Positions 2 to 541 of a stretch of DNA of 541 nt are shown in pieces (within the stretch, counting starts at the first letter, position 1; each line of letters begins with the position of its first letter). Source of the stretch: a phage; sequence record EF517044.1. One strand, given 5' to 3'. The position numbers and the translations under genes are program-made. The notes beneath the pieces are model-generated. The model worked only from the letters and a program-made list of their open reading frames with translations, made no database searches and had not been told where the DNA came from.

Positions 2-292
2 ACTGTGGAGGCAGGACGAGATGAGATGGCTGTAGGCTCTCACGCTAAGGATTACAACCACAACTCTATCGGCGTCTGCCTTGTTGGTGGTATCGACGAT
101 AAAGGTAAGTTCGATGCTAACTTTACGCCAGTCCAAATGCAATCCCTTCGCTCACTGCTTGTCACACTGCTGGCTAAGTACGAAGGCGCTGTGCTTCGCG
201 CCCATCATGAGGTGGCGTCGAAGGCTTGCCCTTCGTTCGACCTTAAGCGTTGGTGGGAGAAGAACGAACTGGTCACTTCTGACCGTGGATGA
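2..292 (+). CDS. 3.5: T7-type lysozyme / N-acetylmuramoyl-L-alanine amidase, C-terminal ~96 codons; 5' end lies upstream of the window
   Basis: Open frame from window position 2 (codon ACT) to TGA at 290-292 translates to TVEAGRDEMAVGSHAKDYNHNSIGVCLVGGIDDKGKFDANFTPVQMQSLRSLLVTLLAKYEGAVLRAHHEVASKACPSFDLKRWWEKNELVTSDRG. From memory this is near-identical to the C-terminal part of T7 gp3.5, including the zinc-ligand/catalytic residues His122 (CAT 203-205), Lys128 (AAG 221-223) and Cys130 (TGC 227-229). The ORF track's start at position 5 is an internal GTG valine codon, not the true start. Not verified by database search. Confidence 0.9.
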   Translation, partial: TVEAGRDEMAVGSHAKDYNHNSIGVCLVGGIDDKGKFDANFTPVQMQSLRSLLVTLLAKYEGAVLRAHHEVASKACPSFDLKRWWEKNELVTSDRG

Positions 293-293
293 T

Positions 294-316
294 TAATTGA
301 ACTCACTAAAGGGAGA
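294..316 (+). promoter_or_regulatory. T7 RNA polymerase class II promoter (phi3.8-like), -17 to +6; predicted transcription start at G311
   Basis: TAATTGAACTCACTAAAGGGAGA at 294-316 aligns without gaps to the T7 promoter consensus TAATACGACTCACTATAGGGAGA, with 19 of 23 matches. Mismatches are at -13 (298), -12 (299), -11 (300) and -2 (309); the -10 to -3 core ACTCACT and the +1 to +6 GGGAGA are intact. Position immediately upstream of the gp3.8-like ORF fits T7 phi3.8. Confidence 0.85.
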
Positions 317-343: not shown

Positions 344-349
344 GGAGGT
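344..349 (+). promoter_or_regulatory. Shine-Dalgarno sequence for the gp3.8-like gene
   Basis: GGAGGT at 344-349, with 7 nt between GGAGG and the ATG at 356-358. Confidence 0.75.
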
Positions 350-355
350 CAAATA

Positions 356-541
356 ATGCGCAAGTCTTATAAACAATTCTATAAGGCTCCGAGGAGGCAT
401 ATCCAAGTGTGGGAGGCAGCCAATGGGCCTATACCAAAAGGTTATTATATAGACCACATTGACGGTAATCCACTCAACGACGCCTTAGACAATCTCCGTC
501 TGACTCTCCCAAAAGAAAACTCATGGAACATGAAGACTCCA
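356..541 (+). CDS. 3.8: HNH endonuclease-like protein (T7 gp3.8 homolog), N-terminal 62 codons; 3' end lies beyond the window
   Basis: ATG at 356 preceded by a strong SD; frame is open to the window end (no stop, so not in the ORF track). Translation: MRKSYKQFYKAPRRHIQVWEAANGPIPKGYYIDHIDGNPLNDALDNLRLTLPKENSWNMKTP. It contains a DHIDGN...N...NLR...EN motif (codons 452-520) typical of HNH (HNH_3-type) nucleases and matches my recollection of T7 gp3.8. Confidence 0.85.
   Translation, partial: MRKSYKQFYKAPRRHIQVWEAANGPIPKGYYIDHIDGNPLNDALDNLRLTLPKENSWNMKTP

Follow-up and report, generated by a model that had tools for sequence, protein, structure and literature searches.

Gene 3.8 in a slightly mutated bacteriophage T7 sequence: an HNH nuclease gene very likely of the homing-endonuclease type

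Background

The phage sequence EF517044.1, of which 541 nucleotides were analysed (this whole stretch is referred to as the window), ends within an open reading frame that starts directly downstream of a lysozyme gene. The question raised by this locus is whether the frame belongs to a mobile homing endonuclease gene, as was proposed in a first-pass annotation made from the letters alone, or to a protein that serves the phage in some other way. The work presented here established the identity of the gene, its family membership, the boundary of its insertion, its patchy distribution, its dispensability and the intactness of its HNH motif. Taken together, it is very likely that positions 356–541 belong to a T7 genome with a few mutations and hold the 5' half of its gene 3.8, and that this is a free-standing, selfish gene of the homing-endonuclease type.

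Results and discussion

The window and its counterpart in phage T7

A search of a phage collection gave positions 10870–11410 of T7 (NC_001604) as the best match of the window, 98.5% identical over 541 bases in a gapless alignment, and no phage record in this collection was found to be more than 98.5% identical to it. The features of the window are the following:

2–292, plus strand: 3' part of T7 gene 3.5 (lysozyme / N-acetylmuramoyl-L-alanine amidase), from translation and the T7 annotation
294–316, plus strand: class II T7 RNA polymerase promoter phi3.8, TAATTGAACTCACTAAAGGGAGA, with +1 at 311, from the annotation of NC_001604
311–331, plus strand: 5'-terminal hairpin of the phi3.8 transcript, GGGAGACC..GGTTTCCC, from RNA folding and the stem_loop annotation of T3
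344–348, plus strand: Shine-Dalgarno sequence GGAGG of gene 3.8, from the sequence
356–541, plus strand: gene 3.8, codons 1–62 of 121, with the complete HNH nuclease domain (predicted beta-beta-alpha-metal fold), from translation, Pfam and PHROG
452–520, plus strand: catalytic core with D33 (452–454), H34 (455–457), N46 (491–493) and N55 (518–520), from alignment with the I-HmuI profile
503–505, plus strand: codon 50, ACT (Thr) where T7 has GCT (Ala), from comparison with T7

The part of gene 3.5 in the window covers residues 56–151 and the stop codon at 290–292, and matches Pfam Amidase_2 with E=1.6e-8. The promoter phi3.8 is annotated at position 11180 of NC_001604, which equals window position 311; its sequence is identical to that of T7 and it is annotated likewise in 13a and T3. 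Gene 3.8 is driven by phi3.8, and in related phages where the place of gene 3.8 is empty the same promoter drives gene 4 directly. A scan of the window for sigma-70 promoters and terminators revealed nothing beyond the expectation from shuffled sequences, and no sigma-70 signal is expected because the region is transcribed by T7 RNA polymerase.

When folding the 5' leader of the transcript the expected hairpin was obtained, with a z of -1.1 that is statistically undistinctive and by itself weak evidence; its counterpart in the record of T3 is a stem-loop given there as RNase III site R3.8. One of the differences between the window and T7, G325A, removes the C317-G325 pair of this hairpin.

The open reading frame starts with ATG at 356–358, is open to the end of the window and has the translation MRKSYKQFYKAPRRHIQVWEAANGPIPKGYYIDHIDGNPLNDALDNLRLTLPKENSWNMKTP. 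By alignment with T7 and its annotation this is gene 3.8, situated immediately downstream of the lysozyme gene as the first-pass annotation had stated, and all positions given there were found to be correct: the ATG at 356, H34 as CAC at 455–457 and the Asn codons N38 (467–469), N41 (476–478), N46 (491–493) and N55 (518–520). RefSeq lists the frame in T7 as gene 3.8 / HNH endonuclease (NP_041974.1), and in other records gp3.8 is named "putative NHN endonuclease" or "homing endonuclease".

The HNH nuclease domain

The comparison with Pfam HNH_3 (PF13392) that had been suggested as a check of the nuclease assignment gave a significant match for the 62-residue fragment, with E=2.1e-15 and 56.5 bits where the gathering cut-off is 24.8, residues 14–55 lying on positions 3–44 of the 46 positions of the profile. 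PHROG 4578, "HNH endonuclease", was matched at E=2.7e-31, and by these profile scores the HNH motif is far above chance.

HNH nucleases are recognised by a general-base His that follows an Asp at the end of the first strand, by one Asn with a structural role and, in the helix, by an Asn or His that binds the metal. When a profile built from 26 homologues was run against the sequences in PDB it found I-HmuI (1u3e) with E=1e-8 and placed D33, H34, N46 and N55 on D74, H75, N87 and N96, so that the D33-H34 pair, N46 and N55 of gp3.8 are in register with the catalytic residues of I-HmuI. The full 26 sequences were needed for this value, as a profile of 7 sequences reached I-HmuI only at E=0.064. 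The functional roles of the catalytic residues of I-HmuI were reportedly described by Shen et al. in 2004, and by analogy H34 is the putative general base and N55 a putative metal ligand in gp3.8. Among the 26 homologues D33, H34 and N46 are invariant and N55 is nearly so; the catalytic residues D33, H34, N46 and N55/N58 show little or no variation even in homologues with no more than 31% identity.

An AlphaFold model of the 99% identical protein P0005 (pLDDT 88) shows strands at residues 31–34 and 47–50 and a helix at 52–57, as expected for this fold. Structure searches, Foldseek included, gave no significant HNH enzyme, with I-HmuI unlisted and I-PpoI at a probability of 0.14 only, and the assignment of a nuclease fold therefore rests on the sequence profiles. 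Matches from a PDB search with the single sequence were rejected as spurious, namely a designed Kelch repeat protein, matched weakly six times over, and Fab heavy chains that have the string GPIPKGYY in common.

An AP2-like domain in the C-terminal half

The HNH domain, approximately residues 14–57, lies inside the window, and a second domain of AP2 type, approximately residues 68–120, lies outside of it. For this C-terminal half the gp3.8 profile matches the AP2 domains of the plant proteins WRI1 (E=6e-4) and TEM1 (E=0.011), and distant homologues of gp3.8 carry PF00847 (AP2) and PF13392 (HNH_3) together. With the Pfam AP2 model (PF00847) no domain was detected in T7 gp3.8 at E<=1, and the AP2 domain of gp3.8 is therefore divergent. 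An AP2 assignment is well supported by profile and model-based structural evidence, and gp3.8 is, as far as these comparisons tell, a minimal HNH and AP2 protein of 121 residues. It belongs with the HNH-AP2 homing endonucleases, which are found in bacteria and phages and are related to the AP2/ERF DNA-binding domain of plants, with the AP2 part as its divergent portion. A nuclease domain combined with a separate DNA-binding domain that reads the sequence is the architecture of a homing endonuclease, and in gp3.8 the latter is the AP2-like domain outside the window.

A single slot, occupied or empty

Presence in some relatives and absence in others, between conserved genes of DNA metabolism, had been put forward, and comparing the genomes of the relatives confirmed it for one fixed slot. 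Gene 3.8 is found in the same slot in T7 and in the Yersinia phages phiA1122 and YpP-R, as an 80% identical orthologue in the Klebsiella Przondovirus IME335 and as an orthologue with 73% protein identity in Yersinia phages of the fPS type. The slot is empty in the closely related Teseptimavirus phages C5 and 3A_8767, in the closely related Yersinia phage WW2 and in T3 (genus Teetrevirus), where the gene order is lysozyme, promoter and then directly gene 4A, without gene 3.8. In 13a and 64795_ec1 a divergent HNH_3 gene occupies the slot, which lies between phi3.8 and gene 4A as in T7; the proteins end in ELHGQYARF, and that of 13a (160 aa) has an extended N-terminus and shares 32% identity with gp3.8 of T7. 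A homologue has also been described in Citrobacter phage SH5, while its close relatives SH4 and Dev2 lack one (PMC4925675). A lysozyme at least 90% identical to that of T7 was found in 283 phage records and a gp3.8 at least 80% identical in only 92, a gap that is partly made up of T7 laboratory deletion mutants.

Placed side by side, T7 and C5 remain colinear as far as ...GTTCGCATTG, the last base of which is window position 344, and this alignment puts the left edge of the gene 3.8 insertion at 344|345. Matches in megablast stop at 344 for C5, SYGE1 and LNA7, at 341 for 3A_8767 and Bas102 and at 334 for 13a, the left junction of the latter thus being situated 10 nt upstream of that of T7. After the junction C5 continues with TTGATTAAGGAATAACCATATGGAATTAGAACAA, consisting of the ribosome site and the first codons of gene 4A, and T3 is arranged likewise; the empty-slot sequence TGATTAAGGAAT..ATGGAA is common to C5 and T3 and is replaced by gene 3.8 in T7. 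In place of the empty site T7 has approximately 373 nt with gene 3.8, and homology resumes at GATAGT, which overlaps the stop codon of gene 3.8. In 13a the junction of the alternative slot gene comes directly after the leader hairpin.

The gene is accordingly present sporadically, at a fixed position and with a recognisable empty site, as is seen for homing genes, and such scattered occurrence at one slot bears the mark of mobility. Much of the pattern would be accounted for by vertical descent in which gene 3.8 was lost repeatedly.

Comparing T7 with phiA1122 (locus L001 against L004, 1337–3541) showed an identity of 79.8% in the first half of gene 3.5, then of 93.9% and 96.8%, with the highest value, 98.6%, reached in gene 3.8; in gene 4 it is about 95–97%, gene 3.8 being only modestly more conserved. 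This gradient fits co-conversion around a homing gene and also ordinary mosaicism, which makes it suggestive, not diagnostic, and as evidence of recent homing it was rejected as too weak.

Other HNH genes were seen in the neighbourhood. T7 has the HNH gene 2.8 between genes 2.5 and 3 (L001 488–907), which phiA1122 lacks, and phiA1122 has a gene for a 152-aa protein with HNH_3 and helix-turn-helix parts between genes 3 and 3.5 (L004 907–1365); 13a and C5 have neither of the two.

At the other end of gene 3.8, the essential primase/helicase gene 4A was found to have its ribosome-binding site and its ATG within the 3' end of gene 3.8, in the conserved ELHGQ codons. The embedded start was located at L001 2178–2221 in T7 (outside the window), L003 3300–3334 in 13a and L010 1241–1266 in IME335, and the annotation of IME335 gives the same 26-nt overlap of genes 3.8 and 4A. 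The divergent slot gene of 13a has the same 3' end and embedded gene 4A start as T7. In phages of the T7 type gp4A starts with MDNSHDSD, and in those with an empty slot with MELEQD (C5) or MEREDD (T3).

Dispensability and the function of gp3.8

The gene had been described as non-essential in T7, and the literature, a viable triple deletion and the deletion clone T7_70S all agree with this. It is called "non-essential gene 3.8" in PMC6042481, trxA has been cloned into it (PMC11011186), as have T3 gene 1.2 or T7 gene 1 (literature including PMC6042481), and a T7 from which genes 2.8, 7.7 and 3.8 have been removed is viable and forms plaques (bioRxiv 10.1101/2025.09.07.674715). In the sequenced viable mutant clone T7_70S gene 3.8 is missing from codon 11 to about codon 112. 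Gene 3.8 is thus dispensable for the phage genome, as a homing gene is. In T7_70S (L011 756–875) codons 1–10 of gene 3.8 are fused in frame to sequence just upstream of gene 4A, and due to this in-frame join the primase/helicase CDS is annotated from the ATG of gene 3.8.

Many HNH proteins of phages have a role in packaging or with terminase (PMC3592412, PMC5304195), those of HK97-like cos phages among them, and gp3.8 might be considered such an accessory factor of DNA packaging and no homing enzyme at all. Membership of the same HNH superfamily is the sole point in its favour. Proteins of the HK97 gp74 type are encoded next to the terminase genes or the cos site, contain a CxxC zinc site and are needed for packaging. 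Gene 3.8 is instead located between lysozyme and primase, in the class II region of DNA metabolism away from the terminase genes, it is dispensable and entirely missing in close relatives, and its product is an I-HmuI-like HNH_3 protein with an AP2 domain. There are 0 Cys in the 121 residues, which makes a CxxC zinc site impossible. By its location, lack of Cys and dispensability a terminase-associated HNH protein was rejected, and a packaging role for gp3.8 is extremely improbable.

A more serious alternative comes from the only functional study found on gp3.8, a 2025 preprint, in which the effect is independent of the catalytic His (bioRxiv 10.1101/2025.09.07.674715). In this study plasmid-expressed T7_3.8(H34A), a dead mutant, strongly cut the protection that GAPS4 gives against lambda, and wild-type T7 outcompeted the triple deletion of 2.8, 7.7 and 3.8 only when GAPS4 was active; H34A was treated as catalytically dead by analogy. 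Such results suggest that gp3.8 may be kept mainly as an anti-defence factor, whose binding to DNA hides breaks from break-sensing defence nucleases such as GAPS4 and whose HNH activity is irrelevant or vestigial, and the well supported AP2-like DNA-binding domain is in line with this. The data are those of a single preprint using over-expression, however, and the phage phenotype comes from a triple deletion in which the share of gene 3.8 is not separated. Moreover the catalytic residues are kept in homologues down to 31% identity, which argues that the nuclease activity is under selection, and the patchy distribution at one slot carries the signature of a mobile gene. As the main reason for which the gene is kept, anti-defence is therefore possible but somewhat doubtful. 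It is compatible with a homing origin, and a second, nuclease-independent role of gp3.8 against GAPS4, a defence that senses breaks, is plausible and agrees with homing as well.

Substitutions in the window and the state of the gene

The window differs from T7 at 8 positions (51, 115, 132, 218, 291, 325, 466 and 503), all of them transitions and 7 of them GC->AT. Gene 3.8 itself is identical at 184 of 186 nt, with a synonymous change at G37 (GGC->GGT) and A50T, so that Ala at codon 50 in T7, where the window has Thr (ACT, 503–505), which the first-pass annotation had given as uncertain, turned out to be right (GCT in T7). Promoter, Shine-Dalgarno sequence and lysozyme gene are the same as in T7, with the six further transitions in this flank. 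In gene 3.5 they give G72D (50–52), a synonymous change at D93, A99V (131–133), P128S (218–220) and a stop codon at 290–292 that reads TGA in the window and TAA in T7. P128 of T7 lysozyme presumably lies directly before the catalytic Lys and near the Cys that is a ligand of zinc.

The natural relative phiA1122 has none of the 8 differences. Over the same 541 nt the mutagenised laboratory isolate "T7 isolate P" (AY264777) shows GC->AT changes at 7 different places, and GC->AT is the spectrum reported for T7 mutagenised with nitrosoguanidine or hydroxylamine (PMC6042481). The window probably derives from a chemically mutagenised laboratory lineage of T7, of the nitrosoguanidine or hydroxylamine type, that the phage collection searched does not include.

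A protein search with the 62-residue fragment gave 4 short matches, none with the exact A50T. The protein closest to the allele of the window is P0005, a full-length gp3.8 variant with 34 member sequences that has G37A instead. Two other entries, P0001 and P0002, are truncated or frameshifted variants of gp3.8 with C-termini that diverge after about residue 85, and this hints at gene decay in some genomes or at assembly errors.

These observations raise the possibility that gene 3.8 is an inactivated or decaying copy in this heavily mutated T7 lineage, in which A50T would have impaired a nuclease that the phage can do without. It is favoured by the number of transitions, eight in 541 nt, and of the changes within sense codons 4 out of 6 are non-synonymous, which suggests weak purifying selection. 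Ala50, with which beta-strand 2 of the catalytic motif ends, is invariant in the 26 homologues of gp3.8 down to 31% identity; since Thr stands at this family-invariant position the activity of the window allele is uncertain, and A50T may impair the enzyme. The variants P0001 and P0002 in public protein collections fit the same picture. Against decay, the frame is intact across the window (which holds the 5' half of the gene only) with all catalytic residues kept, the HNH_3 score is not reduced by A50T (56.5 bits in the window, 56.0 in T7), and other HNH_3 members tolerate different residues at the equivalent of position 50, namely Cys in the slot genes of 13a and 64795_ec1 and Val in I-HmuI. 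A decaying copy is thereby distinctly unlikely, and gene 3.8 of the window is best taken as a homing-type gene with an intact HNH motif.

A model for homing

Of the proposal of a homing-endonuclease-like gene, the HNH_3 family, the patchy slot and the dispensability stood firm, and the homing label itself follows from homology and distribution. In the literature no report was found of site-specific cleavage by gp3.8, a target site, homing or gene conversion, or marker exclusion. Cleavage by gp3.8, its target and homing are here inferred by analogy, and would proceed as follows. Gene 3.8 is transcribed by T7 RNA polymerase from phi3.8 and translated from GGAGG at 344–348. In a mixed infection with a relative lacking the gene, the AP2 domain would bind a long, asymmetric target near the junction of genes 3.5 and 4, and the bound DNA would be nicked or cut at the only HNH site, in which H34 would act as general base and D33/N55 would bind the metal. 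Recombinational repair from the genome that carries the gene would then copy gene 3.8 together with its flanks.

The closest known systems are I-HmuI and I-BasI of the Bacillus phages SPO1 and Bastille, which share the HNH_3-type catalytic motif with gp3.8. Both nick one strand, and the nick is thought to be converted to homing by replication (PMC3017599). As they are, like gp3.8, monomeric with a single active site, nicking is predicted for gp3.8 as well (PMC3017599). In contrast to these intron-encoded enzymes (174 aa in I-HmuI) gp3.8 is free-standing and has 121 aa. The DNA-binding part of I-HmuI, with NUMOD and helix-turn-helix modules, also differs from the AP2-like domain of gp3.8.

In a more elaborate version of the model gene 3.8 would be anchored by the embedded start of gene 4A outside the window, would home by nicking the 5' end of gene 4 in relatives with an empty slot, would resist clean loss and would in addition confer a nuclease-independent anti-defence benefit; this combination as a whole is unlikely.

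Conclusion

That gene 3.8 encodes a protein of this kind is already known, the gene having been annotated as HNH or homing endonuclease for years, and it is in routine laboratory use as a dispensable cloning site. The junctions, with window 344|345 on one side and C5 or T3 as the natural empty allele, supply ready cleavage substrates. The 2025 preprint suggests a further effect of such "selfish" genes, which is to weaken a defence system of the bacteria.
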